From: a virus
Length of the DNA: 64,000 bases
Reading direction: 5' to 3' (one strand)
IMG/VR virus record: IMGVR_UViG_3300027969_000042
Coordinates: 96,001 to 160,000 of that record
Below, piece by piece: positions 574 to 62,857 of this stretch. The stretch's first letter is position 1; each line of letters opens with the position of its first letter. The notes beneath the pieces were generated by a model. The model did not search any database and was not told the DNA's origin. It was given only the letters and a program-made list of their open reading frames with translations. The position numbers were made by a program, and so were the translations under genes.

Positions 574-1560
574 ATGAATAATTTACACAAATATAATGAT
601 TTTTTATTTGAATCTATAATAAATGATATTTTTTTATTATTAGAATCTGACGAACCTAGTCCTACATTTACTTGGGATATGAAAAAACCTACTGAAGAAA
701 AACCAGTAGAAGAAAAACCTGTTACTTTTGAATGGGATTTAACTAAACCAAGTAATACAACATCAACTGTTTTAGATAAACTAAAATCTTTTTTATCTAA
801 GTTACCAAAAGAACAGATCGCAAAGTACTTCTATAAACTATTAGAAAAGATAAAACTTCTACCTGAAAAAACTAGAAGAAAACTTTTAATAAACTATGCT
901 AGTATATTTTTATTATTTTGTTCAGTTGGTTATTTAGTTGACTATTCTAAAGATCAAAAAGATGATAAGATAGTTAAAGAATTTGTAAAGGTTACTAAAA
1001 AGGCTTCTTTTGAGGTTTCTCAAAAAGCTGTGGCACTTGCAGAAGGAGATTACTCATCTGATAAAGGTGATACAGGAAACTTTGTAGATTTTGAAATGGG
1101 TGGTAAGAAGTTAAAAAGATTTATTGGTAGTAAATACGGTATCTCTGCACCAGTTTTAATGAAATATTTAGGCAAACTACCTAAAAAAGATGATATGATC
1201 AACTTATCATATGAAACTGCATTAGATATTTATAAAAATCAATACTGGGATGATCAAAAAATTGAAAGATTTTGTAATCAATCAGTGGCAGACGTTGTTT
1301 ATGATGGATGTGTAAATCAAGGAATCTCTGGAATGAAATCAGTATTGAGAAATGTTTTAAGAGATAATGGTATTGAAATATCAGATGATGTAAATCCATT
1401 TGAAGGTGATTACATTAAACAACTTAATTCATTAGAACAAAATAAACTATTTGACTCTATTAAAAAGTATCGTGAAGATAGATATAAAGAAGCCAGAACT
1501 TTCAAAAGACATGGTGCTGGCTGGTTAGATAGATTAGAAAAGATAACGTTTATAGACTAA
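574..1560 (+). CDS. Glycoside hydrolase family 108-like lysozyme with C-terminal peptidoglycan-binding region
   Basis: AEGDYSSDKGDTG..SKYGIS, YKNQYWD, YDGCVNQG and C-terminal GWLDRL match GH108/PG_binding_3. One hydrophobic helix (aa ~105-125). N-terminal KYNDFLFES motif. Confidence 0.8.
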   Translation: MNNLHKYNDFLFESIINDIFLLLESDEPSPTFTWDMKKPTEEKPVEEKPVTFEWDLTKPSNTTSTVLDKLKSFLSKLPKEQIAKYFYKLLEKIKLLPEKTRRKLLINYASIFLLFCSVGYLVDYSKDQKDDKIVKEFVKVTKKASFEVSQKAVALAEGDYSSDKGDTGNFVDFEMGGKKLKRFIGSKYGISAPVLMKYLGKLPKKDDMINLSYETALDIYKNQYWDDQKIERFCNQSVADVVYDGCVNQGISGMKSVLRNVLRDNGIEISDDVNPFEGDYIKQLNSLEQNKLFDSIKKYREDRYKEARTFKRHGAGWLDRLEKITFID

Positions 1561-1928
1561 ATATCTTTCTCTTTTCCTTTAACTTTAGTATCACTTAACC
1601 AATGTCTATTATCTTTTGGAAGAAAGTCAAATCCATATTTTTTACCTAAAGCAATCAATAATGGTGTTATAGGAACGGGAATAGGAATACCAGAGATTAA
1701 AACTAATGGCACAAGCTTCACCAAATCCATTGAGTGCTCTTTTAAGAACTTAATTTCACCATCTGTTACTTCTTTATCCTGAATCATTTTTCTAATGATT
1801 AGAATCGATATTTTAGTTTCAGTGGCTTCACGTTTAGTACCTTCCCAAAACTCGTGTGCGAAGTCAGTACCTTTTTTAAGAGTGTCTTTTAAAAACTTCA
1901 GAGTTACTGAATCTTCTTTATGTTCCAT
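1557..1928 (-). CDS. Hypothetical protein with LETM1-like segment
   Basis: EIKFLKEHSMDLVKLVPLVLISGIPIPVPITPLLIALGKK..FLP resembles the LETM1/Mdm38 DLxRLVP...P...LP segment. TTTAATATATA at 1956-1966. Confidence 0.5.
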   Translation of the reverse strand: MEHKEDSVTLKFLKDTLKKGTDFAHEFWEGTKREATETKISILIIRKMIQDKEVTDGEIKFLKEHSMDLVKLVPLVLISGIPIPVPITPLLIALGKKYGFDFLPKDNRHWLSDTKVKGKEKDI

Positions 1929-1982
1929 TATTTTTGTTTTATTTTTACAACCTTATATATATTAAATATTATAAGTTTATTG

Positions 1983-2012
1983 TTGTTTTTACAAAAAAAA
2001 ATCATATATTTG
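1983..2012 (+). promoter_or_regulatory. Bacteroidota-type sigma70 promoter (TTG-N19-TATATTTG)
   Basis: TTG at 1983-1985, 19-nt spacer, TAnnTTTG at 2005-2012, just before ATG 2017. Confidence 0.65.
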
Positions 2013-2016
2013 TACT

Positions 2017-2983: not shown

Positions 2984-3736
2984 TTACCAAGTTTGGTTAT
3001 CATCGACCGAACTCATTATTGTATTTGGTGTTATATCTTTAATAAAATTATGTAAATCCTCCATAGCAACTCCAAATTTTGATGATGCACCAGATTTTAT
3101 TAAAACTTCTTCTTCTAAAATTTTATATGTAGGTCTTCCATTTTGTTCATATCCACTATCCTCTGTAAAACAACCTAGTAAGTGTCTTCTAATAGAACCA
3201 CATAATGGTCTAGTAAATGATATTTTACCTGTTATATTAAAGTCATAACTAGAAACTGAAGTTTTAGATAGTTGTAATCCTTCTCCTTTATCTTCAAATT
3301 CGACTTCTACCCAAAATCCCCAAAAGAATCCATTGTCAAAATCACCTTCTGGTATAACATTTTGGAATTTCTCTTTTGTTTCCATATCAACTGGTATTAA
3401 ACCAACTGAAAATACAACATTAAGTTTGTCTTCTTCTAAATAATCTTGTACCATCTCTTCATAAGCATAATCATCAAATAAAAAGTTTAAATAGAAGTCA
3501 CCAGTAACAGTATCTCCTTTTTTATTATACTGAGTAGTTACAGTAGTTTTACCAAACTTTGAATATTCTTTAATATTTTCTTTCCATGCTTTATCTTCTG
3601 CATAATCTCTAAGATTATTTGATCTTGTTTTAAATTCATCGTTACCTGTTTTACGAGCTATATTACTTAATTTCCATGCGGCACTTCTATAAGTACTTGG
3701 ACTTAACTCTTCATTGAATCTCTTTAAGTGTTTCAT
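2984..3736 (-). CDS. Hypothetical protein with capsid-targeting-like N-terminus
   Basis: Starts MKHLKRFNEE; no recognisable catalytic motif. Confidence 0.8.
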   Translation of the reverse strand: MKHLKRFNEELSPSTYRSAAWKLSNIARKTGNDEFKTRSNNLRDYAEDKAWKENIKEYSKFGKTTVTTQYNKKGDTVTGDFYLNFLFDDYAYEEMVQDYLEEDKLNVVFSVGLIPVDMETKEKFQNVIPEGDFDNGFFWGFWVEVEFEDKGEGLQLSKTSVSSYDFNITGKISFTRPLCGSIRRHLLGCFTEDSGYEQNGRPTYKILEEEVLIKSGASSKFGVAMEDLHNFIKDITPNTIMSSVDDNQTW

Positions 3737-4215
3737 TATTTATCTTTTTCGTTTTTTATTATATCGGTATATATTAAGTCTTCTAAATCTTTTTTAACAA
3801 CAACTGTTTTTATATCATTATTAAATGGTGGATTTTTAAGAGGTTTAATCTCATAATCACTATCAATGTTTATATTTTGCATAAATTTCCAATTTACATT
3901 GAATCTCGACTCAGTCGTGTGAAATAAAACCAATAAGTCTGGTTTATATTCATTTAAAAAGTCTTCCGTTATTTGAGTTATGTAGGCATATGTGTCAAGT
4001 GCGTTTTTACTACTCACATTTACTGTACCGAATCCTTCTTCCATTGTGTGGAAGTCTCTTCTCCACATATTATTCTCAATTTTACTAAACTCACATAAGT
4101 AAGTGAAATCACCAAAATCAAACGTATAAACTACAAGCGAATCTCCCTCATCTTTAGTATAGTATATCTTCTTTGGTTCAAAGGTTAGTTCTTCAAATAG
4201 TTTTAAATATCTCAT
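3736..4215 (-). CDS. Hypothetical protein with capsid-targeting-like N-terminus
   Basis: Starts MRYLKLFEE; overlaps both neighbours (translational coupling). Confidence 0.8.
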   Translation of the reverse strand: MRYLKLFEELTFEPKKIYYTKDEGDSLVVYTFDFGDFTYLCEFSKIENNMWRRDFHTMEEGFGTVNVSSKNALDTYAYITQITEDFLNEYKPDLLVLFHTTESRFNVNWKFMQNINIDSDYEIKPLKNPPFNNDIKTVVVKKDLEDLIYTDIIKNEKDK

Positions 4216-5585
4216 TTGAATCCTAAGAATCTTTTTATGAAACCTGGTTTCTTTTCCTCTTTTGGATTTTCTGGATTTCTACTACTTAGTTGTCTTAGTA
4301 TTTCTTGACTTTCTGTAGTATCTATCTTAACGTCGACATTCTCAATTTTTTTACTATCTATAAAATAAAATATAGGTAATATATCCATTTTCTCATTATT
4401 ACTCCAATACTCATTACCATATAAATCCATAACAGGAATTACATAATCTTGTGGTTCTGTATCAACTACTATATAGTGATCATCATTCCAATAGAATACC
4501 AACCATTTACCAACTTGTAGAATAAATTGAGGATTATCTTTAGCTTGTTCTACTGTTATCAAGCCTAATTTTATTCTTATTCCAATGTAAGAAGTGTTCC
4601 TTGGAACTTGAACATACTCTGTAATTGCTTTACCTGCGGAATTTTCAGGAGGTATATCAAGTAAGTATAATTTATTCTTATTAGTGGTAAAAACTCGTAG
4701 TATAGGAGTACTCCTATCTCTTAATTTTAATACCATTGGTGCAAATGAATATGATTTTGATAGTAGTAAATAATTTACGTCATCTTTACTTGGTGTCTTG
4801 ACTTTTAATCTATCTGTAAAAACTTTATCACCATTTATTTTAAAAACACCATCTTTAATATTATCACATCCTAAAAATTTTTGATAGTATGATTTTTTAT
4901 TACCATTTGATAAATTCAAAGTAGTAAAGAAAACTCCATAGAAAGTATGATTTTCTGGTTTTGCTTCACATTTATCATCATTGTCATTATGTGCAACGAA
5001 AGAAATTGTATCATCTGGCTCATGTTTTATACTAATACCAAATCTTACCCAACTTTTATTAGTATTTCTATAAGCATCAGTAAAATAATTATTGTTAGGA
5101 GTAACTATATTTTTCAAATATCTATTATCAATAGCAACCCACTGCTCTGGAAATTTGGATTGATAGTTATCCCAATGACTTTTAGTTTTTAAACACCAAG
5201 CAGGTGAACCTATTTCTAAAATACCCTTGTAAGTATAAACTCTAAAAAATGAGTAGGTAGAATCTTTATAAATCAACTCATAATCTTCTTTTGAAGAAGA
5301 AGTCATTTGATCGTAAAAAGTGTCTAAGATCTGTTCATATGACATTTTATTAAGTTTTCCTAAATCAAGTTTAGAATCTCTCAAAACTTCAAAGATTGAC
5401 TTCAATTCTTCCATATCAGTTACATTATCAACAAATCTAAGTCTTGTTAGAATACCAACATAACTAAACGCAGTACCTACCATCTCTCTTATTTTAAGAT
5501 AGTCTTCATTATCTTCTGTAATTCCATTCTTTCTAAGAATAGATTTAGCTAAAGCAATGTTTTCATTTAGTTTAATATATTTCAT
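4212..5585 (-). CDS. Hypothetical protein with capsid-targeting-like N-terminus
   Basis: Starts MKYIKLNEN; contains IGSPAWCLKTKSHWDNY; TTTAATATATA at 5590-5600. Confidence 0.85.
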   Translation of the reverse strand: MKYIKLNENIALAKSILRKNGITEDNEDYLKIREMVGTAFSYVGILTRLRFVDNVTDMEELKSIFEVLRDSKLDLGKLNKMSYEQILDTFYDQMTSSSKEDYELIYKDSTYSFFRVYTYKGILEIGSPAWCLKTKSHWDNYQSKFPEQWVAIDNRYLKNIVTPNNNYFTDAYRNTNKSWVRFGISIKHEPDDTISFVAHNDNDDKCEAKPENHTFYGVFFTTLNLSNGNKKSYYQKFLGCDNIKDGVFKINGDKVFTDRLKVKTPSKDDVNYLLLSKSYSFAPMVLKLRDRSTPILRVFTTNKNKLYLLDIPPENSAGKAITEYVQVPRNTSYIGIRIKLGLITVEQAKDNPQFILQVGKWLVFYWNDDHYIVVDTEPQDYVIPVMDLYGNEYWSNNEKMDILPIFYFIDSKKIENVDVKIDTTESQEILRQLSSRNPENPKEEKKPGFIKRFLGFK

Positions 5586-8525: not shown

Positions 8526-10046
8526 TTATCTTGATTTAAAATTTTCAAAACTTTTGATTAAATTACCTTGTTTATCTAATTTAGTAACATCTTTAGTAGC
8601 AATTACTTTATTATCCATATCAGGTGATTTTGGATTGAAATGTTCTGCAGGTTCACTCCACTTTAAACTCAAATTAAAAGGAACACCTGATAAGTCAGAT
8701 ATAATCTTATTCTTAAACATATCAACATATTTTAAACCATCATAAAGAGTCAATTCTACAATTTTATCATCTTCACTACCAGTTTTCTCACCAGACTTTC
8801 CATAGATATTTGAAATTGAACCAATTCCACCGTGACCACCAGAAACAGTAATCTCATCTTGTCCTAATGTGGTATCGGGATTGTGATAACCTAGGTGTTT
8901 TTGAAAGTTTTTTAATAACTCTGTCATATACTTACCTAAATCATCAACTACTTTACTACCTTTTAATGTAGGTAAATTTTCAATTGTATTTATCTTCTTA
9001 TATGCACAAACTTGTAAAGTTGAACCATATTGAAGTAATATGAAATTAGGTTCTGAATCCAGAACACCATCAGCAAAATCTTTCTCAACAATAACTCTTG
9101 CTCTTAAAGCATTTGCCCAAGTTCCAGTTGGTACAAAAACTAAATTACCAATTTTTTGATAACCATCCATTTGAAGATATTGACCATTTTTAAATTGATT
9201 TGTAAATTCTGTCTGTGTATTATAAGTTTTTTTAGAAGACATTGAACCTCTAGTTTTCTTTTGCATTTCTCCTAATCTCCATTGAGAATCCTCAATAAAG
9301 TCTTTTTTATGACCTCTTTTAGGTCCACCCATTATAGCATTATGTTCTGGATAAACTTTCTTCATCACATTAAAAATAGAGTAAATAGAAGCATCTGCAC
9401 AGTTTTGAATAACTGATATAAGTGTTTTCGTATCTGATCTTTTTAAGAACTGATTAAATGCTGCACCAAATTCTAATCTTCTTTTTTTAGACTTTTTAAT
9501 TTCTGATAAATTAAAATCTAAAAGTCTTTGCCAAGGAACTTCATATTCATCATATTTTGCAGCATCAATCATATCAATTACATCTAATTGAAGCGAATCT
9601 TGTGGAACACCGAGTGCTTGACAAACTGCCTCATATCCAGAATCAGTTTTTTTCTTTTGTACCGGTGACTTTTTATATTTTTCTAAATCATCTTCATTGA
9701 ATAATCCGTGGTGATCTAAGTAATAATCTATCATATCATCTCTTTCATCTCCTGGCATAGAAGCGAAATCTAAAACAACATTTATAAGTTTTGGATCTAA
9801 AGTTGTATATTTCCAACCTTCTGTGTAATTAAGTATACCGTATTTAACAATAGTAAATCCTTTGTTAAGTAAGTATTTTTTTACTTCGATTGCAGAGAAA
9901 ATACCATCCATATCATCGTGAGTATAAAGTGCAACATTTTTACCTTCTTTACCTTTTCTTAACCAATACTTTTCATCTACTGGCAATCTTGGTGAAGACT
10001 CTTCTTTGATTAAATCAAATTTATTAAATTGTTTTACGTTTTTCAT
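8526..10046 (-). CDS. DHH/DHHA1-family phosphoesterase
   Basis: YTHDDMDG, VLDF, LDHH and C-terminal SGGHGG motifs. N-terminal KQFNKF..IKEE and C-terminal KSFENF. Confidence 0.75.
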   Translation of the reverse strand: MKNVKQFNKFDLIKEESSPRLPVDEKYWLRKGKEGKNVALYTHDDMDGIFSAIEVKKYLLNKGFTIVKYGILNYTEGWKYTTLDPKLINVVLDFASMPGDERDDMIDYYLDHHGLFNEDDLEKYKKSPVQKKKTDSGYEAVCQALGVPQDSLQLDVIDMIDAAKYDEYEVPWQRLLDFNLSEIKKSKKRRLEFGAAFNQFLKRSDTKTLISVIQNCADASIYSIFNVMKKVYPEHNAIMGGPKRGHKKDFIEDSQWRLGEMQKKTRGSMSSKKTYNTQTEFTNQFKNGQYLQMDGYQKIGNLVFVPTGTWANALRARVIVEKDFADGVLDSEPNFILLQYGSTLQVCAYKKINTIENLPTLKGSKVVDDLGKYMTELLKNFQKHLGYHNPDTTLGQDEITVSGGHGGIGSISNIYGKSGEKTGSEDDKIVELTLYDGLKYVDMFKNKIISDLSGVPFNLSLKWSEPAEHFNPKSPDMDNKVIATKDVTKLDKQGNLIKSFENFKSR

Positions 10047-10081: not shown

Positions 10082-10864
10082 TTATCTGTTATTATAATCA
10101 TTTTCTATATAACGCCAAGCATCATTAAAATCTCCAAAATTGAGTCCATTTTGATGTAATAACACCTCTAGTCTATTAAAGTCTACTACTCTACAAAGAT
10201 TATCGTGTATTATAAAATTATAATGTGAAGATGATTGTGTGTTATAAGAAAGTTTAAGTACTTTAACCGGATTGTTTCTATCAGTTACAAACTTATTTTT
10301 ATAAAAAATATAATAATGTCTCCATCTTCCAGTATTTCTTGTTACTTTCCAAACAGATCTGTCTTCATCATTATCTAATTGACTAAGATAAGTATTATCT
10401 TTTTTATATACTCTTGATAAAAGATCACACAAAATTTCATTATAAATTTGAATTCTAATACCATCAATAGGAACTATTTGTTGTAAAGTATTTATACTTG
10501 TCAACTCTTTTTCATTCCAAACGTTATTTTGAATATCTAAAAGATAAAGTGATTTAATAACATATTCTTTTTTTAGAAAATGTAAAAAAGGTATAAATCT
10601 ATCTGATACTGTGTTCCAAAGAAAAGGATGTACCTCTACTCTATTTCTAACATCTGTTTGAAAATTAGTAGTCTTGGATGCTGACGTATCTTCTTTTTTA
10701 TAAATATAAATTTCTAATTTATTTGCAGTATTACCACCATTTTCTTCACAATCACCAACAATAACTTCATATCCCTCATCAAGTAAATAAGCTAGATGAT
10801 TCCTAACAAAATCCTCAACATCTCTAATTTGATATGCCTCATTTATACTTTTTAAATATTTCAT
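10082..10864 (-). CDS. Hypothetical protein with capsid-targeting-like N-terminus
   Basis: Starts MKYLKSINEA. Confidence 0.8.
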   Translation of the reverse strand: MKYLKSINEAYQIRDVEDFVRNHLAYLLDEGYEVIVGDCEENGGNTANKLEIYIYKKEDTSASKTTNFQTDVRNRVEVHPFLWNTVSDRFIPFLHFLKKEYVIKSLYLLDIQNNVWNEKELTSINTLQQIVPIDGIRIQIYNEILCDLLSRVYKKDNTYLSQLDNDEDRSVWKVTRNTGRWRHYYIFYKNKFVTDRNNPVKVLKLSYNTQSSSHYNFIIHDNLCRVVDFNRLEVLLHQNGLNFGDFNDAWRYIENDYNNR

Positions 10865-19600: not shown

Positions 19601-21832
19601 TTACTTTTTAATAAAGTTAGTAGCACCATTTAAAACGTTACTAACTGCACCACCTGCAAAGTCTGCCAATTCATTTCTAATATCATAAAAAAATCTATCA
19701 GTTGTATTTGTTAGTGCAATACCCATTGGATCTTGTGGACCTACATAGATATTTTGTGGTGGACTAATTCCTTTTTTTCCAACAAAGTCAATTAAAAGTT
19801 TATTTATTGTTCTTGATAATAAACTAACTCTACCATTTACTAATGTTGCTAATTCTTGTTTAGCACTTTTTATAGTTTTATCTTTTAATCTTTCAATAAA
19901 GTTACCAATATTAGTATCTGCTTTTTTGTTAGTTAGCTCTTTTAAAGATGTTGGTATTCCAATTGTTTTATTTTTCTCAGTAAAGTTTTTTATGGCAGAC
20001 TCTGCACTATTTTTTAATAATGTTTTAGGATTATTTAATAACTCTAATTTTTTATTTTGTTCTTTAACTAATTTACTTAGATCTGCACCGATCGCAGTTT
20101 GATCTTTAGCATACCTTTTAAATTTATCTAAGTCAAATTTATCTTCTTCATCCTTTGTTTGTAAATCATCTATCTTCTCATCAATTGAAAATCCTAAAGG
20201 GTTTTCTGGTAAATTAACACCAAATCTATTTAATACTGCTGGTGATTTAACACCATTGTTATTAGTTGTATTAGTACCTGATGTGAAAAATCTAGGTAAA
20301 GAAGTATCGCTTGTAGTTGATTGTGTTCCACCTCTTTGTACTCTTGCACCCGCGTTACCGATTTTCCAAATAGCACCACCATCATATCCAATATATTTAC
20401 CGAAATTTGCAGATGGCATAAATTTTTCAAACTTAACTGTAGAATATTTATAATCAAACTGAATACCATAAGTATCATATGTTGCAATAGCAGCCATATC
20501 AATATCAGGATTGTGAGGCATTGTATTAAAAAAGAACTGACATTCTTTTAAAGAGTAAACATATCTAGATAAGTTATCTTTAATAACCTCTAAATCACCG
20601 TTATCCATAGCTTTTCTAACTCTATTAAAATTTCTACACTCAGAAACTATAATATCACAGTTAAATCTTAGTAGATTTTCAGGTACTATACTTTTACCAT
20701 TTGGTTTAGACCAATATAGTAATTTATATAAATGTGCTAAAGTACCCATTGTCAGTGATACATCCTCTGTAAAATCAAGTGTAATAACATCCGTTCTATA
20801 ATCAACCAGAAATTTTTTCTTATCTGGAGTATTTGATTCTATTAAATTTCCTAATCCACCAATTTTTTTAAGATAATAACTCATATATGATGTTTTTCCA
20901 CCTCTAAAAAGATCTTTAGAACTATCAGTATTTGCATAACCAGGTTTAGTTTTACTCATTGATACTTGTTCATCATTTATATTTACAGTAGTTTTAGTTC
21001 TAAATAGTTTTACAAATTGTTGTTTAAAATCCTCATAGACCGGAATTTTATACTTTATCTCATCAACCCCACTATAAATCTTTAAAAAATCAAGTACAGA
21101 ACCATTTAATAATGGAGAGGATATATCATCTATTATAATCTCAAATCCAAACATAACAGGGTCGTTATTCTCATAAGGTGTTTGTTGAAATTGTGATAAA
21201 CGTAATTCTGATTTACCATTTTCTGGATTTTCAATAGGAGTTAAATTATCAATTATTTGTAAACCATGTTTAAAATAATCAGTTCTTGTATCATTAAATA
21301 ATAAGTAATAATCACGTGTACTATAGGGAGATGATTTCAAATCTTTTGGTTTTTTAGGTAAATTTTTACTCTCACTAAACCTCTCATCAGTATCTAAGAT
21401 AGTAGAATTTGCACCCGGCTTTATTAGTTGTCCCAACCAATCAACATACTCATACTCTCCTACTTTAATTTGATTTACTGTATTAGGAGTTGCTTCTAAT
21501 TTATTTTCAGGACTAGTAGTATTAGTATCACCATTCGCATATTGTTCGGTTGACTTTGGAGTACTACCATATCTAAAATCTTTACTAGGTCCTATAAAAT
21601 ATGGAGACAAAAATCCTTTATCAATACTTGCCTGTGGCCAAGGATTTCCATTTTTAATAATATTATCAATATTTGATCTCAAATCACCTTTAAGCTTATT
21701 AAGTTCAATAGTTTCAATTTGTCCAGTTTCTTTGTTAAAGATAGTATAAGTTCCTGCTTTATACGAGTATTTAGGAGGAGTACCAACAATTGATTCAGCA
21801 CTAGTAGAAGTAGACAGTTTACTTAGATCCAT
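19601..21832 (-). CDS. Putative tail/baseplate structural protein
   Basis: 743-aa ORF co-oriented in the baseplate cluster; no enzyme motif. Confidence 0.5.
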   Translation of the reverse strand: MDLSKLSTSTSAESIVGTPPKYSYKAGTYTIFNKETGQIETIELNKLKGDLRSNIDNIIKNGNPWPQASIDKGFLSPYFIGPSKDFRYGSTPKSTEQYANGDTNTTSPENKLEATPNTVNQIKVGEYEYVDWLGQLIKPGANSTILDTDERFSESKNLPKKPKDLKSSPYSTRDYYLLFNDTRTDYFKHGLQIIDNLTPIENPENGKSELRLSQFQQTPYENNDPVMFGFEIIIDDISSPLLNGSVLDFLKIYSGVDEIKYKIPVYEDFKQQFVKLFRTKTTVNINDEQVSMSKTKPGYANTDSSKDLFRGGKTSYMSYYLKKIGGLGNLIESNTPDKKKFLVDYRTDVITLDFTEDVSLTMGTLAHLYKLLYWSKPNGKSIVPENLLRFNCDIIVSECRNFNRVRKAMDNGDLEVIKDNLSRYVYSLKECQFFFNTMPHNPDIDMAAIATYDTYGIQFDYKYSTVKFEKFMPSANFGKYIGYDGGAIWKIGNAGARVQRGGTQSTTSDTSLPRFFTSGTNTTNNNGVKSPAVLNRFGVNLPENPLGFSIDEKIDDLQTKDEEDKFDLDKFKRYAKDQTAIGADLSKLVKEQNKKLELLNNPKTLLKNSAESAIKNFTEKNKTIGIPTSLKELTNKKADTNIGNFIERLKDKTIKSAKQELATLVNGRVSLLSRTINKLLIDFVGKKGISPPQNIYVGPQDPMGIALTNTTDRFFYDIRNELADFAGGAVSNVLNGATNFIKK

Positions 21833-30234: not shown

Positions 30235-30294
30235 TTATGGGTATTATTTTTTGTTTTTATTATAAAATAGAGTAAAAGTTTAATATATACTAAT

Positions 30295-40486: not shown

Positions 40487-40556
40487 ATTTAATTTAATTA
40501 TTAGAGATTATATGAAAAAGTTGATTTTTTGTTTAATAGTTTTTAATATATAATTT

Positions 40557-42121: not shown

Positions 42122-42203
42122 AATGATTATATCAAAGTTGATAACTTTGTTTAAACTAATTTACATTTTCATGTATAACATAAGAACATTAAAAATATCT
42201 AAA

Positions 42204-43307: not shown

Positions 43308-43323
43308 ATTTAATATATAGTTT

Positions 43324-43773: not shown

Positions 43774-44837
43774 TGATTAGCAAGTATAACCAATTTTTAA
43801 TAAATGAATCTAAACTTATACTAGAAGCATTTTTAAGTGCAGATACAAGTTTCTTATCTAAATTAGATAAAATTTCAAGACAGTCAAATTTTTCATCTAC
43901 AATTGCACATATGCTTTTATCTAGAATTAATGATAAAGACTGGGTTTCTGAGATAGATTTAAAACAAGATTTCTTTAAAACAACTGATGATAAAGATAAA
44001 GTATCTTTTATTCAAACAAACAGAGTAAAAGATGATGTAGATCCATATACAATGGCTGGTAGAAGTGATCTTAAAGTTGGTAGAGCAATAAAATACATAG
44101 CAAAAGATTTATATGATATTAAGATTACTGATAAACAAATAGAAGATTTTGTAAATGTTTATAAATCAATTGCAGATGAAGGAGAAGCAGATTTTCAATT
44201 TTATGTTGGAGAAGAAATAAAATCAGGTTATGCTGAAGAGAATTACTTTGATAGAAACTTAGGAACTCTGGGTAGCTCTTGTATGACTGGACACCCATCA
44301 TTTCTTAAAATATACGCTAAAAATGAAAAGAAAGTTAGATTACTAGTTCTTCTCGAAGATGGTAAAATATGTGGTAGAGCATTAGTTTGGAAATTAGATA
44401 AATCTCCTTGTGATGCAGAATATTTTATGGATAGGGTTTATACAAACCGTGATTATGAAGTAAATAAATTTACACAATATGCTGAGAAAAATGGATGGTT
44501 ATACAAACAAAGTATGACTTGTGGTGATTCTGCAGCAGTAAAGTTTAAATATAATGGAAAAGAATTATTAGGAGAAATATCTGTTAAGATAGATGGTAAA
44601 CATTCCAAATATCCTTATATGGATACTTTATTTTGTTTAAATAAAGATAAAGATGAACTTTCTAATGTTCCTTCTTGGAAATGTTATAGATTATGGGACA
44701 CCGATGGTGATCGCGAAAGATGTGATGACTGTGAAGGTAAATCAAAGAATAAGAATCTATGTTATGGTTGTTCAGAAGGTGTAATGGTTTTAAAACAATC
44801 AGGTATTGAAATAGACGTTGAGAAGGGAAGAGGTTAA
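43773..44837 (+). CDS. Conserved phage protein (SCM...GRALVW...DRVY family)
   Basis: Starts MISKYNQFLINES; LGSSCM, GRALVW, MDRVY and YPYMDT. Paralog of 56996-58135. Confidence 0.75.
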   Translation: MISKYNQFLINESKLILEAFLSADTSFLSKLDKISRQSNFSSTIAHMLLSRINDKDWVSEIDLKQDFFKTTDDKDKVSFIQTNRVKDDVDPYTMAGRSDLKVGRAIKYIAKDLYDIKITDKQIEDFVNVYKSIADEGEADFQFYVGEEIKSGYAEENYFDRNLGTLGSSCMTGHPSFLKIYAKNEKKVRLLVLLEDGKICGRALVWKLDKSPCDAEYFMDRVYTNRDYEVNKFTQYAEKNGWLYKQSMTCGDSAAVKFKYNGKELLGEISVKIDGKHSKYPYMDTLFCLNKDKDELSNVPSWKCYRLWDTDGDRERCDDCEGKSKNKNLCYGCSEGVMVLKQSGIEIDVEKGRG

Positions 44838-45928: not shown

Positions 45929-46618
45929 TTATTTTGTAAAGAAACTTTTCAAATGGGTCATTGGATTAGAATCATTTTTTTCAGAATCATCACCATCAAA
46001 ACTACCATCATGTGTAGCAAGTCCAAAATCCTCTTCTGGATTATTGTGTCCTGCAATAAAATCAAATACTTCTTCAATATCATCTTTAGAAGATGTAATA
46101 TGATCAGAAGCCCAATCATGTTCTGTTAGCATTGCATCGATTTCTGATTTATCCATTTTTAATAATTCATCAACTAATCTTTTGATAGTTTCTAAATTAC
46201 TAAAAAACATATAATTCTCTTGTTCACTATGTTCTTTAACTGCTTTAAGTTTACTTAAAGTTTTTGCCAACTCTAATCTTCTTTTTTTAGTAGCATCTTT
46301 TTTATCTAATTGAGTACCCGGTTTTTTCTTATCTTTATCCTTAGCTTTTAATTTAGAAAGTTCTGAGTCTATTTCTTTCTTAGAAATCTTTTCATCATCT
46401 TTTTTACCTAAAGATTTTTTTAATGCACCAGGATGTTTAATTGCATCTTTGATCCAATTTTTCTTCTCATTGAATTCTTCTGAGTTTTCATCAGTTAGTT
46501 CATCAGTTAGTTCATCTGTTTCCTCATCTTTTTCACCATAACACATACAATGTTCAATTGGATCTTGACAATTCATACACATTTCCTCTTTATCGAAATT
46601 CTCAAATTTCTTAATCAT
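45929..46618 (-). CDS. Highly charged hypothetical protein with capsid-targeting-like termini
   Basis: Starts MIKKFENF; WIKDAIKHPGALKKSL..RLELAKTL; ends LKSFFTK. Confidence 0.8.
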   Translation of the reverse strand: MIKKFENFDKEEMCMNCQDPIEHCMCYGEKDEETDELTDELTDENSEEFNEKKNWIKDAIKHPGALKKSLGKKDDEKISKKEIDSELSKLKAKDKDKKKPGTQLDKKDATKKRRLELAKTLSKLKAVKEHSEQENYMFFSNLETIKRLVDELLKMDKSEIDAMLTEHDWASDHITSSKDDIEEVFDFIAGHNNPEEDFGLATHDGSFDGDDSEKNDSNPMTHLKSFFTK

Positions 46619-52898: not shown

Positions 52899-53639
52899 AT
52901 GAAGAAATATTTTGAATTTGTACAAGCTGATTTTGAACCAGTAAAATCATTTCATTTAAAAGATGAATTGAATCCTAAATTATGGACTGATTTTGAACTT
53001 GATCAAGAGGTTAGAGAAGATTTATTAAGAATTGCACAAGACTTTTATAATTCTACCGATTTAAACGTAGATGTTAAAGATGTCATTCTAACAGGTTCAT
53101 TATCAAACTATAACTGGTCAGAAAAATATTCTGATTATGATTTACATATCTTAATAAACTTCAATGAAGTAAGTGAAGATGTTGAACTAGTTAAAAAATA
53201 TGTTGATGCTGCGAAAAACAACTTCAATAAAGATCATGACATTTTAATAAGAGGTTATGAAGTAGAAGTTTATATACAAGATGTTTCAGAACCACATAAA
53301 GCAACTGGAATGTTTTCATTACTCAACAATAGATGGATTGTAAAACCAGAGAAAGTTGATTTTACACCTGATGATGATGAAATCAGAGAGAAAGGTAAGT
53401 CAGTAATGATGCTGGTTGATGATTTAGAAGATGAAGTAGACGAAGATAAGTACGAACAATTTAGTGAAAAGATTAAAAAAGTTTGGGAGAAGATAAAAAA
53501 CTACAGAAAAAGTGGTTTAGATAGTGAAGGTGGTGAACTTTCATTAGGTAATTTAGTATTTAAACTACTAAGAAGAAATGGGTATATTGAAAAAGTTATG
53601 AAACTTAAAAGATATGCTTATGATAAACAATTTGAATAA
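52899..53639 (+). CDS. Pol-beta-superfamily nucleotidyltransferase
   Basis: LTGSLSNYNWS..SDYDLHIL (GS...DxD) and VEVYIQD. Confidence 0.75.
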   Translation: MKKYFEFVQADFEPVKSFHLKDELNPKLWTDFELDQEVREDLLRIAQDFYNSTDLNVDVKDVILTGSLSNYNWSEKYSDYDLHILINFNEVSEDVELVKKYVDAAKNNFNKDHDILIRGYEVEVYIQDVSEPHKATGMFSLLNNRWIVKPEKVDFTPDDDEIREKGKSVMMLVDDLEDEVDEDKYEQFSEKIKKVWEKIKNYRKSGLDSEGGELSLGNLVFKLLRRNGYIEKVMKLKRYAYDKQFE

Positions 53640-54351: not shown

Positions 54352-55053
54352 ATGAGTAGAATTAAGAAATATGAGGACTTTCTAAACGAAGGTAAAATTA
54401 CACAATTTGTATTAAAAACATTACTTAATACAAGTGGATATATCCAATCTATTATTAAAAGAATAAAAGGTACTTATATACCATTTACTTTCAAAGATAA
54501 AAAGGTGGAAAATGATTTTGAAAATAAAATGTTTGAACTATTTGATTATTCAGTATTTGATACTATTAAATACCATTTTACTAAAAATCAAAAAGAAATG
54601 GCAAATAAAACATCACTTTCTGATTTAATCAAATCGAGAACTGGTGTTGATGTTTATCAATTATCGGACTCTATTTTAGGTCTATTAAAAATAGAGAATA
54701 TTAAAGTTGCAGAAGGTAAGGAAGAAGAAGCAAATAAAGTATTACAAAATGCAATAGATACCACTAAGAAAATGATTTCATTTATTAAAAAGATTGATGA
54801 TGAAATTGAGGATGATAGACAATTTATGAAAGATCTTAAAGATTTAGGAGAATTATTTAAAGGATTAGATCCAAGAACTTCAAATCTAAGAGATAAAGAT
54901 GATACTTTAGCTGCGTTTGATAAAGTTGGTAGTAAACTAGATGATATGCAAGAACCAAAAGAATTAGATGATATACTTGATAAGATAAGTAAATTCGGTA
55001 TGAGTTCTTTAACTGAGAAAGAAAAAGATGATTTAGAGAAGTTAAGTAAATAA
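54352..55053 (+). CDS. Protein with capsid-targeting-like N-terminus and C-terminal DUF6576-like motif
   Basis: Starts MSRIKKYEDFLNEG; ends LDDILDKISKFGMSSLTEKEKDDLEKLSK. Confidence 0.75.
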   Translation: MSRIKKYEDFLNEGKITQFVLKTLLNTSGYIQSIIKRIKGTYIPFTFKDKKVENDFENKMFELFDYSVFDTIKYHFTKNQKEMANKTSLSDLIKSRTGVDVYQLSDSILGLLKIENIKVAEGKEEEANKVLQNAIDTTKKMISFIKKIDDEIEDDRQFMKDLKDLGELFKGLDPRTSNLRDKDDTLAAFDKVGSKLDDMQEPKELDDILDKISKFGMSSLTEKEKDDLEKLSK

Positions 55054-56995: not shown

Positions 56996-58135
56996 ATGCT
57001 TATATATAAAGGGATTGAATACAAACCGGGTAGTAAAGTAATTGCAAATGTAGATGGTATCCAAATTGAAGGTAAAATTCAACAAGAGGACCCATACTAC
57101 TATATTTGTCATAATGAACCCGAAAAATCAGGAAATCAAGCCCACGATAGACTAGGATATAGTTACTCTTGGGCATTTAAGCAAGAAGGTGATGGAACAC
57201 TTACCGATGGTGTTGTTATATTAGGTCTAAATGGTGTTGAAAACTTAAAAGATAAATTTGAAATATCCCAAAAGTTACTTACTTTTTTTCAAAGTAAAAG
57301 AATTGATATTCTTTCGATAGAAGATAAAAGGATGTTTCCAGATTATAATAAGTTTGATATATCAGAAACCAAAGGAATGATTAAATTAGTAGATTCTACA
57401 AAAAATAGAAGTACTGATTTAAAATTTGGAAGATTTTTAAATTCATTCTCTAAACAATATAAAGACACATTTAAAATGGAGTCTTTATTTGATAATAAAA
57501 AAGTAGAGAAAACTCATAATGATTATGTATCATATCAAACTGGTGATCACATTAGAGTAGAGTATTTAACAGGTAAACAAATCTTAGAAGGGTATAAAAG
57601 AGAAAATTATCAAGCATCTAAATCATCATTAGGTGGTTCTTGTATGACAGATAAACTAAGTTATCTAGATCTTTATACAAAAAATCCTAATAAGGTAAGT
57701 ATGGTTGCAATTAAAGTGTTTGATAAATTTGTTGGTAGATGTTTAGTATGGACTACTAATTGTGGGCAAAAGATAATGGACAAACCTTACATTTGTGATG
57801 AATGGGTTTTATCTAAATTTGACGAAGTTAGAGAAAAAGAAGGATATTTATCATTTCAAGATGTTATAAACTCATCAATAAAATTATTTATTGATTTGGA
57901 TACCACTGATATTGATGAATGGCCGTATTTAGATACATTTATGTACTTAACTTTTCATCAAAAGAAAGTTATTGTTGAACAACCAGTAGAAGTTCTTACA
58001 TTAAATCTATTTAATCGTAAAACAGAGGTGTTAGAAGATGATTATTCTAAAGGTATATTACAATCTTATCCACCAAACGGTTATTCTATGAGACTTAGAG
58101 CAACTAATGGTAGATATGAAGATAATAGAAATTAA
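56996..58135 (+). CDS. Conserved phage protein (SCM...GRCLVW family), paralog of 43773-44837
   Basis: DLKFGRFL, LGGSCM, GRCLVW, MDKPY and WPYLDT. Confidence 0.75.
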   Translation: MLIYKGIEYKPGSKVIANVDGIQIEGKIQQEDPYYYICHNEPEKSGNQAHDRLGYSYSWAFKQEGDGTLTDGVVILGLNGVENLKDKFEISQKLLTFFQSKRIDILSIEDKRMFPDYNKFDISETKGMIKLVDSTKNRSTDLKFGRFLNSFSKQYKDTFKMESLFDNKKVEKTHNDYVSYQTGDHIRVEYLTGKQILEGYKRENYQASKSSLGGSCMTDKLSYLDLYTKNPNKVSMVAIKVFDKFVGRCLVWTTNCGQKIMDKPYICDEWVLSKFDEVREKEGYLSFQDVINSSIKLFIDLDTTDIDEWPYLDTFMYLTFHQKKVIVEQPVEVLTLNLFNRKTEVLEDDYSKGILQSYPPNGYSMRLRATNGRYEDNRN

Positions 58136-59157: not shown

Positions 59158-60435
59158 TTATTCCAGAACGTTATCAGTAAACCACTTAATAACTAGTTCT
59201 TTTGGTATCACATCACCATAATACTCTGTATATTCTTCACCACCTTTTTTAATGACATATGATGTATCATCGGTGTTTATACTATCAAAGTATTTAACAT
59301 ACTCTTCAAAGCTCTTAAAACGCATCCCTAATACACTGACCGAGTCGTCATTAAAGATCATCATCTTATAATCATCTGGACTAATATCAATACCAAATAG
59401 GTTACCTAAATATGTATTTAATTTCTTAACATCTTTAAAATCAAATCTAACATCTTTCTGACCTTCGATTTGAACTAAAATATCATCTAAAATTGTTACT
59501 TTAATATCAACATCTTCAAACCAAGTATTAAATACAAGTGTATCTGTATTATATGTATCATACTCTAATGTATTTGTGTGAAGTAAGTCATATTTATTTA
59601 AAATACTTTTAACTTCTTTTACAACACTCTTATTAGAGAAACGATGTCTTGGTGCAATTTTATATTTTGGTTCAAAATAAGTTACTTTTCTTTCAGTTGG
59701 TAGGTTCTCCCAATCAATTTTACAAGCAGCTTCTGCAACTTTTTTAGTATAAGATAAATCTACATACTCTGTTTTATAGTGTTCATTCCATCCACCTGCA
59801 CTAATATTAGTACATTCTGGAATAATATCTAAGAAAGTGGCAGTATCTGTATAATAAGCATTTGGGTCTGGTTTAGACTCAACACCTAAATTGGTTAGTT
59901 CATCTGATAAAGCATCTGCAAAATCAATAGAACAACAAAATCTACCTTTCTGTCTTAGAACAACAGAACCGGTTTGTTTTCTATCAAATGCAACTGCTCT
60001 TTTAAATTTTTTGAAGAATTCTGGGTTTGCTTTTAAAGCATTTTGTGACCCCCATAAACCACCACTTAAAATTGGCTCTTCTCCTAAGAAGAAATAATAA
60101 GTTCCAGGTATTCCTTTAGAAATCATATATAATAAAATAGACATTCCTAATTTATTATCACCACCTAATATGGTTGTTTCATCAGTTTTAATAATATCAC
60201 CTTCAATAACGTGATTTACCTTTTCATATTTAGTACAATAAGTATCTAAGTGAGTTGTAAATAATGTTTCTGAATTACCTAGTTGAATATAATAGTTGCC
60301 AATAGAATCTTTTTTATATCCTTTTGGTAGATATTTTTCTAATTTGGTTTCATCACCATAAGGAATTGTATATTCAGTTAGTTTCAAAAAAGTATCCTTT
60401 ATATCTAAAGGATTTATACTTTCATTTTTTGCCAT
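59158..60435 (-). CDS. M28/M20-like zinc peptidase-fold protein
   Basis: FTTHLDT, LGGDNKLG, FFLGEE, AFDRK, YTDTA and GWNEH. TATATTTG upstream at 60453-60460. Confidence 0.8.
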   Translation of the reverse strand: MAKNESINPLDIKDTFLKLTEYTIPYGDETKLEKYLPKGYKKDSIGNYYIQLGNSETLFTTHLDTYCTKYEKVNHVIEGDIIKTDETTILGGDNKLGMSILLYMISKGIPGTYYFFLGEEPILSGGLWGSQNALKANPEFFKKFKRAVAFDRKQTGSVVLRQKGRFCCSIDFADALSDELTNLGVESKPDPNAYYTDTATFLDIIPECTNISAGGWNEHYKTEYVDLSYTKKVAEAACKIDWENLPTERKVTYFEPKYKIAPRHRFSNKSVVKEVKSILNKYDLLHTNTLEYDTYNTDTLVFNTWFEDVDIKVTILDDILVQIEGQKDVRFDFKDVKKLNTYLGNLFGIDISPDDYKMMIFNDDSVSVLGMRFKSFEEYVKYFDSINTDDTSYVIKKGGEEYTEYYGDVIPKELVIKWFTDNVLE

Positions 60436-60465
60436 AATTGTTTAATTTTTTACAAATATACAAAA

Positions 60466-61053
60466 TTAAAATGGACTTTCATCATCTTCTCCAAAATCTT
60501 CATCAGTATCATCATTTAATCCTTCATCATAATAGAATCCAAATTCTAAGGTTTGACCTCTTTGATTTTCCCACATATCAAATTCTGAATCATATTGAGG
60601 TAATATATCCATTTTTAATTTATTTAAAAGATCAAAAACATTTATTACATCACTTAATCTTTCTCTATGACCCATAGAACATCTAATAGATAAATCTAAA
60701 TTATCATTAGTAATAGATACATTTTCAATACCTTTATTTTTAAACATACCTCTTAATAGATATTTTAAGTGTTCCATATCATCATCTTCAATATCTTCAT
60801 CACTTAAATCTGGATCTCTATCACCATCTTTATTATCATAATGATCAAAGTTATGAGCTATTCCACCATAATACTCACTATCATAAAAATCTTCATCATC
60901 ATCAGATATTTCACCAGACATATCAAAACGAGATGGTAAAGAGTTACTCTTTTTTCTAGAACCACCTGCCCAATCATCATTCCAATCTTGATCTGTACCT
61001 TCCCAGGCATCATCATCAACTCTTTCTATAAATCTTTTATACTTTTGTATCAT
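60466..61053 (-). CDS. Acidic hypothetical protein with capsid-targeting-like N-terminus
   Basis: Starts MIQKYKRFIER; D/E-rich. Confidence 0.75.
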   Translation of the reverse strand: MIQKYKRFIERVDDDAWEGTDQDWNDDWAGGSRKKSNSLPSRFDMSGEISDDDEDFYDSEYYGGIAHNFDHYDNKDGDRDPDLSDEDIEDDDMEHLKYLLRGMFKNKGIENVSITNDNLDLSIRCSMGHRERLSDVINVFDLLNKLKMDILPQYDSEFDMWENQRGQTLEFGFYYDEGLNDDTDEDFGEDDESPF

Positions 61054-61054
61054 A

Positions 61055-62431
61055 TTATTTTAATTCTATTTTGATGGTTGTTTCGTCAAAAACAACGTAA
61101 GGGTCTGCGGTTCTGTGCTTATATAATAAACCTTGTACTTGTGATAATGTATCAAAGATAGTTTTAACATCAGCAAGATCTAAATCTATTTTAATAAATA
61201 TTTTATCTTGAACACCAACTACTTTAACATCTAAACCAAATATAGATTTTTTAACAGTATCAATTAAAGTTTTATGTTTTCTTAATAATTCTTCATTTAT
61301 ACCTACTTTTCTTACAGCTGGTAATTGTGACCAATTTACTTTTAAAGAAGCTTTTGCCAATTTCTCTAAATAAGTCATATTTTGTATCTCTCTAAATGTA
61401 TGCTCGTTATTATATCCAACCGATACGTTAGTACATTCTGATATATCATCAATAAATGATGCAGAATCCGTAAATACTCCCGTTGGATCAGTAGATAAAT
61501 TTAATCCACTTTTATTATATTCTTTACAAAGTGCGGTAGCAAATTCATTTGAACAACAAACTCTACCATATTGAGAAGTAATAACCGAACCGGTTTTTCT
61601 TCTATCAAAAGAAACACATTTTTTAACATTTTTTAGAAACTCAAATGAACTATATTCACTTGCCAAATCTCTTGAACCAATACCACCTCTTTCTTCCCCA
61701 ATAAAGAAGTAATAAATACCTGGTATTTTGTTTTCCATCATATATAACATTACTGCTACTCCTGCTTTATCATCTGCACCTAATATAGAAGTACCATCAG
61801 TATAAATATACTCATCACCATCTTCTATTTTTGATAATAATTTAGTAGGTAATTGAGATCTATCTGCAGTATCTAAGTGAGATGTAAACATTGTAGTATC
61901 ATCTCCTGCGATTACTTTATAATAATTACCAAATTTATCTAATTCTAGGTCTGGTAAAAACTCTAAAACCTCAGTTTCGTGACCCATAGGATAAGTTTTT
62001 GTTACCAATGATAAGAATGTTGAACGAACATCTTTAGGATTATAAACAAATGGTTTATGTTCAATTGGTGTACCAACTGGTTGTACTGCAACTTTTACTC
62101 CTTTTTTAAGATTTACAATTGTAGTAGAGAATTTTCTAATACTTTCTTCATCATAAACACCCGGAAAATAACTTCTCAAAAATGTTCCAATTTTGATATA
62201 TTGTCTTCTTCCACCTATTATAGCATCAAAGAAATAATCTGAATCAGAGATATCCAATCTTGATATATTCATATCATTCGCATATTTAGACCTAGGATCT
62301 GCCATCCAGTTAAGTTCATATGCAATATAATCATCATGATCATCTTCCATTGTAGTTAGAAGTTTTACTAACCTAGCAGAAAATGCAATCTTTATTTCAT
62401 CTTCATATTTCATTTTATAATCATTTGCCAT
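61055..62431 (-). CDS. M28/M20-like zinc peptidase-fold protein with extra N-terminal domain
   Basis: FTSHLDT, LGADDKAG, FFIGEERGGIGS, SFDRR, FTDS and GYNNEH. N-terminal IKIGTFL segment. Confidence 0.8.
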   Translation of the reverse strand: MANDYKMKYEDEIKIAFSARLVKLLTTMEDDHDDYIAYELNWMADPRSKYANDMNISRLDISDSDYFFDAIIGGRRQYIKIGTFLRSYFPGVYDEESIRKFSTTIVNLKKGVKVAVQPVGTPIEHKPFVYNPKDVRSTFLSLVTKTYPMGHETEVLEFLPDLELDKFGNYYKVIAGDDTTMFTSHLDTADRSQLPTKLLSKIEDGDEYIYTDGTSILGADDKAGVAVMLYMMENKIPGIYYFFIGEERGGIGSRDLASEYSSFEFLKNVKKCVSFDRRKTGSVITSQYGRVCCSNEFATALCKEYNKSGLNLSTDPTGVFTDSASFIDDISECTNVSVGYNNEHTFREIQNMTYLEKLAKASLKVNWSQLPAVRKVGINEELLRKHKTLIDTVKKSIFGLDVKVVGVQDKIFIKIDLDLADVKTIFDTLSQVQGLLYKHRTADPYVVFDETTIKIELK

Positions 62432-62464
62432 TTAAAATGTTTTTATTTTTATTATATATTAAAA

Positions 62465-62857
62465 TTATATAGTGACTTCGTGTGCATTTTTATAATCAAC
62501 CATAACTTGACCATCATTCATACCTGGTTTTTTACTAACAAATCTACGTTTACAGTAAACTACAGTTGCTTTATCAGTACCTTTTGCCTTACTATTATCT
62601 TTTGCAATTTCAGCAAATCTTCTAATTAATTCAGGAGTTGGTATATTATCTCTAACAATGATAACAACATGACTTCCAGGAACACCTTTTACGTGCATCC
62701 ATATATCGTCATTATCAGCAACATTAAACGTTAGATGGTCATTAGACTTTGCATCTTTACCCAGATGTACTAAAAATCCATCAATTTCCATCTTCTTAAT
62801 ATTTGGAAACTTATCTTTCTTGGATTCATTAAACTGTGAATATTTCTTTAATCTCAT
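62465..62857 (-). CDS. Stand-alone NFACT RNA-binding (DUF814) domain protein
   Basis: GKDAKSNDHLT....DDIWMHVKGVPGSHVVI...A.IA..NSK....V.Y..RRFVSK..G...GQV. Likely start MRLKKYSQFNES at 62857. Confidence 0.88.
   Translation of the reverse strand: MRLKKYSQFNESKKDKFPNIKKMEIDGFLVHLGKDAKSNDHLTFNVADNDDIWMHVKGVPGSHVVIIVRDNIPTPELIRRFAEIAKDNSKAKGTDKATVVYCKRRFVSKKPGMNDGQVMVDYKNAHEVTI

Follow-up and report, generated by a model that had tools for sequence, protein, structure and literature searches.

A short N-terminal peptide (here called the tag) opens about a quarter of the genes on a viral contig from IMG/VR, and we propose that it is probably a capsid-targeting and processing peptide of the phage T4 type used at very large scale, by which its bearers would be packed into the head, trimmed and injected. 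The stretch of DNA analyzed here, called the window throughout, is 64,000 nucleotides long and comprises bases 96,001-160,000 of record IMGVR_UViG_3300027969_000042, a contig of 177,545 bp with 29% GC and ends without overlap. Comparisons are made chiefly with LR745206, a complete 635-kb genome of an uncultured relative.

A shared N-terminal peptide

All 20 of the N-termini that the original prediction had listed for the window were found, each at its own position and on its own strand. Tags were scored with a weight matrix of 11 columns, trained on the contig's own N-termini, at a threshold of 7.8, which is reached by one in 5000 internal positions. Sixteen of the 20 pass (scores 12-24). Those at 5585, 10864 and 35543 are degenerate and are caught only by a regular expression for an M-K-Y-L-K variant, and the N-terminus at 61053 lies below the threshold (1.5); its LR745206 orthologue passes. 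Across the whole 177.5-kb contig, 36 of 177 open reading frames (ORFs) pass the matrix, compared with 0.25 expected from the internal rate, and the variant expression adds seven, for a total of 43 tagged and 134 untagged ORFs. We regard the shared N-terminus on roughly a quarter of the contig's genes as confirmed.

A strict pattern, [LIVM][KR]x[FYW]xx[FYIL] starting within residues 1-6, is present in 24 of 177 ORFs, compared with 0.62 expected from internal positions. When residues 2-18 were shuffled within each protein (500 shuffles), the mean number of matrix matches was 1.5 and the maximum 6. Unseeded expectation maximization returned the consensus M-K-Y-L-K-L-F-E-E-F with a log-likelihood of 362, compared with 190-210 on shuffles. 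About four of the matrix matches look false (the portal, 79650, 163124 and window 56881), and one tag is concealed by a mis-called start, the ORF at 42123-43274 having its probable start at 42204.

The consensus can be written hydrophobic-K-K-[F/Y]-[N/E]-[Q/E]-F-[I/L/T/N]-x-E and begins at the Met itself or after M, M-x or M-K-Y. Information content peaks at the aromatic of column 3 (2.95 bits) and at the Phe of column 6 (2.88 bits). The Glu at column 9 (1.57 bits) ranks after the hydrophobic and Lys columns 0-2, column 7 is I, L or V in about half of the tags, and conservation is gone past column 10. The primase, helicase, clamp, polB, Dam, IF3, ClpP and baseplate genes lack the tag, as had been claimed. 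An artefact of composition was ruled out by the N-terminus shuffles and by Tenacibaculum phage PTm1, which matches in GC content and host class but is without tags.

Distribution and source

The tag recurs in related genomes, with the following counts:

LR745206 (635 kb, complete): 106 of 904 ORFs tagged, 1.8 expected by chance
G011 (281-kb fragment from IMG/VR): 48 of 386 ORFs tagged
LR756500 (400 kb sampled): about 20 of 543 ORFs tagged, 1.5 expected by chance
PTm1 (29.7% GC, flavobacterial host): 5 weak matches among 308 ORFs, 0.85 expected by chance

In LR756500 the consensus reads M-K-Y-I-K-E-Y-E-E-F-[I/L]-N-E. A scan of IMG/VR with one codon-specific form of the tag matched at least 119 stretches; 208 of the 965 ORFs in 80 retrieved loci are tagged, and 21 of 46 parent contigs encode this phage's capsid protein, the remainder resembling fragments of the same clade.

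By its Pfam match (Gp23, E=1e-27), the major capsid protein is a member of the T4 gp23 family. Identity is 70-71% with its counterparts in LR745206 and LR756502 (uncultured, 635-642 kb), 52-53% with those of 636-735-kb phages, 35% with that of LR756500 (462 kb) and 29% with those of PTm1 and the Lak phages. In tblastn searches, the capsid protein matched only uncultured huge phages above 35% identity, and the matches of one tagged family were confined to uncultured records. Homologues of T4 gp20, gp4, gp5, gp41, gp43, gp44, gp46, gp61, UvsX, UvsW and NrdA were found on the contig by BLAST (the portal is 25% identical to gp20), and 127 of the 177 contig ORFs have reciprocal best hits in LR745206. 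From the T4-type capsid protein, the T4 core genes and these orthologues, we therefore assign the contig to a distant T4-core huge phage, of which it is a fragment. Those of the relatives whose genomes are larger than 634 kb are the 'Mahaphage' genomes, with Bacteroidetes as predicted hosts (PMC7162821).

G011 (281,114 bp) is classed in IMG/VR as a provirus and is rated 94% complete by CheckV, which rates the present contig 74% complete. G011 is merely collinear with 355-540 kb of LR745206 and is without the head module, and we therefore consider both completeness values unreliable for this clade.

A modular element under selection as a peptide

Synonymous codon choice is no less variable within the tag than in gene bodies (AAG 27% vs 19%, AAC 36% vs 20%, GAG 27% vs 21%), and amino-acid substitutions are conservative (F/Y/W, I/L/M, K/R). 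Because synonymous codons vary freely, we conclude that selection acts on the tag as a peptide. The same variability ruled out a nucleotide-level element or a recombination cassette.

The proteins that carry the tag are unrelated, as first suggested: their bodies (residue 21 onward) have no mutual BLAST match at E<1e-3. A paralogous family was ruled out by this all-against-all comparison and by a Pfam tally of one family each; in LR745206 a Pfam domain is found in about 11 of 93 tagged proteins, each family being seen once. Among the 26 tagged ORFs with an LR745206 orthologue, both members are tagged in 20 cases and most of the others are threshold misses. The tag is retained where the orthologous bodies are only 31-45% identical and the adjoining linker is unalignable. 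For the tagged NFACT-R protein of the window, 104 of 104 metagenomic orthologues open with the tag and Glu11 is invariant; in its AlphaFold model, residues 1-15 have a pLDDT below 50 and make no contact with the domain, which is modeled at about 90. The LR745206 homologue of T4 RnlA carries its tag on an N-terminal extension of about 75 residues.

Likeness to the T4 capsid-targeting sequence

The capsid-targeting sequence (CTS) of the T4 internal proteins IPI, IPII and IPIII was described by Mullaney and Black in 1996 (reviewed in PMC9026906). IPII and IPIII start with M-K-T-Y-Q-E-F-I-A-E (AF158101). Applied to 258 T4 ORFs, the phage-only matrix placed gp61.1 first, IPIII and IPII third and fourth, gp24 (a known gp21 substrate) fifth and IPI eighth; the second place of thymidylate synthase is taken as chance. 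In T4, experiments have shown that targeting needs residues 4 and 7 and processing needs residues 8 and 10 (PMC9026906). In the tag, the counterparts of residues 4 and 7 are the two columns of highest information, that of residue 10 is the Glu of column 9, and that of residue 8 is column 7. The proposed likeness to the CTS holds under both the ranking of T4 ORFs and the match to these key residues. That T4 has a CTS, carried by a small number of fast-evolving internal proteins, was already known (PMC9026906, PMC3012670).

Two other T4 N-termini are as CTS-like as those of the internal proteins, namely that of gp61.1 (54 aa; AF158101 18966-19130, minus strand) and that of an ORF at 20112-20408 (minus strand), which overlaps gene 61.4 from an upstream ATG.

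A core pattern drawn from the CTS, [FYW]xx[FYW][ILVM]xE, is found in T4 in IPII, IPIII, two more small N-termini and the gp23 maturation site. At the latter, the core (aromatic-x-x-F-[I/L]-x-E followed by A) recurs at gp23 residues 59-65, where the maturation cut falls, and a weaker form is present at the N-terminus of the scaffold protein gp22. In T4 as well, then, the tag resembles a duplicate of a site at which a head protein is processed.

The tag and the protease-scaffold

Two head genes bear on how the tag might work:

62930-64000, minus strand: major capsid gene (575 aa; Pfam Gp23), of which the window holds the 3' part; the rest, up to 64657, lies outside it
64745-66937 in window numbering, outside the window: gp21-like protease-scaffold gene, adjoining the capsid gene (730 aa)

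The protease matches the PHROG head maturation protease (E=2e-27). Over its first ~170 residues it can be aligned with T4 gp21; it shares the His and Ser motifs, and its N-terminal I-V-E resembles the L-I-E of T4. Residues 305-445 of the same protein consist of ten tandem 14-residue repeats, Y-S-E-Y-[I/L/V]-A-E-N-L-D-K-N-I-x (42-nt period and 10.6 copies by TRF), which AlphaFold models as one long helix (pLDDT 90).

The CTS core occurs ten times in this protease-scaffold with an exact 14-residue period, a density of 13.7 per 1000 aa compared with 0.23 per 1000 in the remaining proteome. It is also present in the N-termini of 8 of 43 tagged and 0 of 134 untagged ORFs, and LR745206 gives a like result. 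The tripeptide N-E-S occurs six times in the protease-scaffold (8.2 vs 0.36 per 1000 aa, a 23-fold difference), and NE[SGAN] ends 14 of the 43 tags and none of the 134 untagged N-termini. In the capsid protein, Y-A-E-F-H-S-I-N-E stands immediately before the segment that aligns with mature gp23, and H-S-I-N-E is found in two tags as well; this is only suggestive of an internal tag ahead of the capsid cleavage site. As a further weak hint, one tagged protein runs on into a capsid-like N-arm. Through the scaffold-repeat core, the N-E-S ending and a promoter class shared with virion genes, the tag is linked to the head machinery more strongly than could be seen when it was first noted.

The protease-scaffold also has a very acidic, Glu-rich stretch at residues 470-560 (~65260-65530, window numbering), with short E-F-A-E-E-A-K repeats that TRF detects as well.

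Promoter-like elements and a second tag

An element of the form [TA]ATATATA ends either 4-5 nt or 19-25 nt ahead of the ATG of about 75 contig genes; examples in the window lie at 561-569, 30281-30289, 40544-40552 and 43311-43319. The 4-5 nt spacing implies leaderless or nearly leaderless mRNAs. The element precedes the protease, fibre and gp4 genes and most giant ORFs (in LR745206, 32 of the 65 ORFs of at least 500 aa). It is not found before the helicases, primase, polymerase, RNR or clamp loader. It is over-represented at tagged genes (26 of 42, compared with 49 of 134; p=0.004), as it is in LR745206 (49 of 106 tagged, compared with 172 of 798 untagged; p=2e-7), and about half of the tagged genes are operon-internal. 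A different box, TAnnTTTG, which we take to be the Bacteroidota sigma-A -7 box, precedes small clustered ORFs and shows the same 4-5 nt peak in LR745206; no enrichment of it at tagged genes was found.

A C-terminal tag of the form [RK]xx[KR][ILV]xx[ILV]-hydrophobic, a helix, ends 89 LR745206 ORFs and is present in this contig too. Its overlap with the N-terminal tag is 1 of 106 (p=2e-4), and only 2% of the C-terminally tagged LR745206 ORFs lie behind [TA]ATATATA. From this mutual exclusion and the difference in promoters, we conclude that the two labels mark two gene sets.

Tagged proteins of the window

The tagged ORFs of the window are as follows, with matrix scores in brackets; 'regex' marks those caught by the variant expression only:

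574-1560, plus strand: GH108 lysozyme, 328 aa, tag in the first 14 codons (21.6); GH108 at residues 153-250 (Pfam E=6e-13), PHROG endolysin; promoter-like element ends 4 nt ahead of the ATG
2984-3736, minus strand: orphan family that recurs in relatives, 250 aa (17.3); LR745206 orthologue tagged at 35% identity, several tagged copies in IMG/VR loci
3736-4215, minus strand: operon-internal, 159 aa (19.5); no Pfam match
4212-5585, minus strand: degenerate tag, 457 aa (regex); orthologue has a truncated tag; promoter-like element 4 nt ahead of the ATG
8526-10046, minus strand: weak DHH phosphoesterase, 506 aa (12.0); Pfam DHH E=0.003, below cut-off
10082-10864, minus strand: degenerate tag, 260 aa (regex); orthologue tagged
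30295-30945, plus strand: HAD motif I at residue 19 by regular expression, no Pfam match, 216 aa (14.8); promoter-like element 5 nt ahead of the ATG
31374-32528, plus strand: HAD-like motif I at residue 24, 384 aa (19.4); orthologue tagged, 42% identity
34225-34767, minus strand: tag followed by a Pro/Ala-rich linker, 180 aa (20.9); orthologue tagged, 38% identity
35543-36271, plus strand: degenerate tag, 242 aa (regex); orthologue has a full tag
36279-36590, plus strand: tagged ORF, 103 aa (14.5)
40557-41528, plus strand: HExxH at residue 220 by regular expression, 323 aa (19.3); promoter-like element 4 nt ahead of the ATG
41528-41794, plus strand: operon-internal, 88 aa (20.4)
42204-43274, plus strand: probable extra tagged ORF, longest frame from 42123; internal matrix match (11.7) at residue 28, to which residue 1 of the LR745206 orthologue aligns (84% identity)
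43324-43773, plus strand: tagged ORF, 149 aa (15.3); promoter-like element 4 nt ahead of the ATG
43773-44837, plus strand: tagged ORF, 354 aa (16.7); untagged paralogue at 56996-58135 (E=4e-15)
45929-46618, minus strand: tagged ORF, 229 aa (23.7)
52899-53639, plus strand: tagged ORF, 246 aa (18.8), directly 3' of the gene for a 1024-aa fibre; orthologue tagged, 73% identity; no Pfam match
54352-55053, plus strand: DUF6576 at the C-terminus (Pfam E=1e-10), 233 aa (23.1)
60466-61053, minus strand: weak tag, between two M28-like peptidase genes, 195 aa (1.5; orthologue 9.3)
62465-62857, minus strand: NFACT-R protein (Pfam NFACT-R_1 E=1e-13), 130 aa (21.8), directly 3' of the capsid gene

The functions that had been ascribed to these proteins fared unevenly. 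Pfam supports the GH108 lysozyme, the DUF6576 C-terminus and NFACT-R; the DHH assignment is weak, the two HAD enzymes and the HExxH protein rest on regular-expression matches, and the nuclease-like protein and the nucleotidyltransferase find no support in Pfam. The other tagged proteins of the window are orphans, as are about 85% of tagged proteins overall. PHROG comparisons of tagged orphans, and of large virion-like proteins, gave few matches. Among the tagged proteins of LR745206 are a CCA-adding-type nucleotidyltransferase, a T4-type RNA ligase 1, a NUDIX protein, a GH108 protein, an M15 peptidase, a DHH+wHTH protein and a 2H/Acb1-like phosphoesterase fused to a DEDD exonuclease. The interpretation first given is, taken as a whole, partly supported; its takeover and anti-defence toolkit leans on the small number of members that could be annotated. 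Two cell-wall hydrolases are tagged; a GH19 endolysin elsewhere in the contig is not, and the tagged hydrolases are therefore additional to it.

Tagged proteins range from 62 to 691 aa. One copy of each would sum to 1.1 MDa for the contig and 2.5 MDa for LR745206, which is small relative to a 635-kb genome, estimated at ~410 MDa. The bodies of tagged proteins are weakly depleted in [LI]xE (ratio 0.87, z=-2.1), unlike controls, which is a hint only.

Proposed mechanism and its alternatives

We propose that the tag copies one unit of the 14-residue helical scaffold repeat, the scaffold being fused to the gp21-like prohead protease. Tagged proteins would be produced late, alongside virion proteins, and the free, disordered tag would fold as an amphipathic helix and join the coiled coil of the scaffold. 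The tagged protein would then be enclosed as the gp23-type shell forms. The protease is expected to cut the tag after its Glu, often between N-E and S or after [I/L]-x-E, as for the scaffold itself, and the freed protein could stay with the DNA and be ejected into the next host. Such a scheme is, in our judgment, probably a greatly expanded variant of the known T4 mechanism.

A more far-reaching version is one that we put forward tentatively. Here, in the largest phages known, more than 100 different late proteins per genome would be addressed to the head by a single scaffold unit and freed by the fused protease, and the exclusive C-terminal tag would send an early-gene set elsewhere, so that two labels sort the proteome. 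The cargo of the head would then include RNA-repair enzymes, cyclic-nucleotide-type phosphodiesterases and cell-wall hydrolases.

Several observations weigh against capsid targeting and delivery. At P3, I, L or V is found in no more than about half of the tags, and Phe takes this position in the M-K-Y-L-K-x-F-N-E form. The protease falls below the cut-off for Pfam S77, and the putative cleavage region of the capsid protein scores poorly with the matrix. PTm1 has a protease-scaffold fusion yet no tags. Tagged bodies are acidic (median pI 4.8 vs 5.5; 72-80% acidic), and more than 100 cargo species per genome is far beyond any known case. The promoter class is also imperfect, since [TA]ATATATA precedes PhoH and a Dam-like methylase and is therefore not strictly of the virion-gene type. 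That tagged genes would be late and co-made with virion proteins is read from gene content only. Tags are commonest where a promoter box abuts the ATG (33-44%, compared with 13-28% where there is a leader), an excess that a role in translation could explain as well. Finally, a megablast search for a cultured relative with a virion proteome gave no match.

The alternative that survives best, though we consider it unlikely, is that the tag docks its bearers to the scaffold or to another late structure and serves no delivery, the bearers (assembly helpers, for example) being later removed or degraded. What connects the tag with the scaffold and with late expression fits this account equally well, acidic cargo is ill-suited to a DNA-filled head, and T4 scaffold fragments mostly exit the head (PMC9026906). 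On the other hand, there is no obvious reason for an RNA ligase, a CCA-adding enzyme, a NUDIX protein, an Acb1-like phosphodiesterase or cell-wall hydrolases to be at the procapsid unless they travel, and the T4 precedent is one of delivery.

It is improbable that the tag acts instead as an N-terminal translation aid, through the start region or the nascent peptide, for late and often leaderless mRNAs, its likeness to T4 being coincidental. Such an aid would account for the excess of tags where the box ends 4-5 nt ahead of the ATG, and the residues of the tag are those with AT-rich codons. However, residue order matters rather than composition, substitutions are conservative at the protein level with synonymous codons varying as they do in bodies, and the Glu at its fixed distance is left unexplained. 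Leaderless genes behind the host-type box are without tags (5%). Of the tagged genes, about half lie inside operons; tags are absent from the capsid protein and from other late proteins made in abundance; and PTm1, of the same GC content and host class, has no tags.

We give little credence to a degron that would time protein removal, whether its reader were the phage ClpP working with a host unfoldase or the M28-like peptidases near the capsid gene. The candidate ClpP is full-length and untagged:

29575-30234, minus strand: phage ClpP (Pfam CLP_protease E=4e-66)

The phage does encode this bona fide ClpP, as well as three paralogous peptidases beside tagged genes, the tag is exposed and disordered, and N-terminal degrons of ClpX begin Met-basic-hydrophobic. 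Because the prohead protease is of the gp21 type, ClpP must have some other purpose. A degron nevertheless leaves unexplained the match to the scaffold repeat, the N-E-S shared with the protease-scaffold and the match to T4 residues, and late co-expression with virion genes would be odd for proteins marked for destruction. Least credible of all is that the tag has no function and was either left over from common descent or spread between genes as a recombination cassette of promoter and first codons, for although many tagged genes share an upstream promoter-like element, the bodies are of different folds and Pfam families, each seen once, the codons differ, the offset from Met varies, and tags are kept in operon-internal genes and in orthologues only 31-45% identical.

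Comparison with known systems

The tag resembles the CTS of T4 IPI, IPII and IPIII in being an N-terminal peptide of about 10 residues with Lys at 2, an aromatic at 4, Phe at 7, Ile or Leu at 8 and Glu at 10. In both cases the bodies are unrelated, the capsid is of the gp23 type and the protease of the gp21 type, and the bearers turn over quickly between relatives. The scale differs, with more than 40 tagged proteins here and 106 in LR745206 compared with ~3-8 in T-even phages. Whereas the T4 internal proteins are small, basic and DNA-associated, the cargo here is acidic, up to 691 aa long and in many cases enzyme-like, and so falls outside a narrow definition of internal proteins. The tag, unlike the CTS, is often preceded by M-I or M-K-Y and copies the repeat of a protease-fused scaffold.

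Encapsulation peptides of microcompartments and cargo-loading peptides of encapsulins are likewise short amphipathic helices that, through a flexible linker, load unrelated enzymes into a shell, and encapsulin shells share the HK97 fold with phage capsids. The binding partner of these peptides is the shell and not a scaffold repeat, no protease removes them, and their cargo does not pass to another cell.

Among large phages, 201phi2-1 has 19 processed head proteins and SPN3US more than 50 head proteins, and a gp21-related protease cuts after Glu (PMC9026906, PMC5694885). The phiKZ, 201phi2-1 and SPN3US heads are thus similar in holding many different internal proteins that depend on propeptides, but those propeptides are long, dissimilar and cut at multiple sites, and a short shared tag is not known there. 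Phage P1 loads the defence-countering Dar proteins via N-terminal determinants and injects them (PMC9024508); in contrast to the tagged set, these are few, are loaded in an ordered hierarchy and have no common decapeptide. In the literature searched, we found neither the tag in huge phages, nor an expansion to 12-24% of ORFs, nor a tag equal to a scaffold repeat.

If capsid targeting and delivery is correct, huge phages would bring dozens to more than 100 ready-made enzymes and small effectors into the cell rather than bare DNA, and their takeover of the host and escape from defence would have to be rethought. For a clade that is uncultured and common in metagenomes, including those of freshwater, a simple sequence rule would also predict which proteins are injected. 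A tag that is one scaffold repeat would offer a physical rationale for capsid targeting, which, given the likeness to the gp23 cleavage region, may apply to T4. A natural 10-residue tag able to load proteins of up to 691 aa into a very large capsid would moreover be of interest for protein delivery.

Genes near the head module

Three M28-like peptidase paralogues are encoded on the contig, two in the window (59158-60435 and 61055-62431, both minus strand) and one elsewhere in the genome (49500-50693, minus strand). The two window genes interleave with tagged genes directly 3' of the capsid gene; this pair matches a PHROG peptidase (E=2e-63 and 6e-52), and the match to Pfam M28 is weak.

Two further small ORFs encode pieces from the N-terminal part of the capsid protein. 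One (95409-95912, plus strand, contig numbering), located just before the window, has the tag in place of the propeptide. The other (21341-21667, minus strand, contig numbering) ends in the C-terminal tag.

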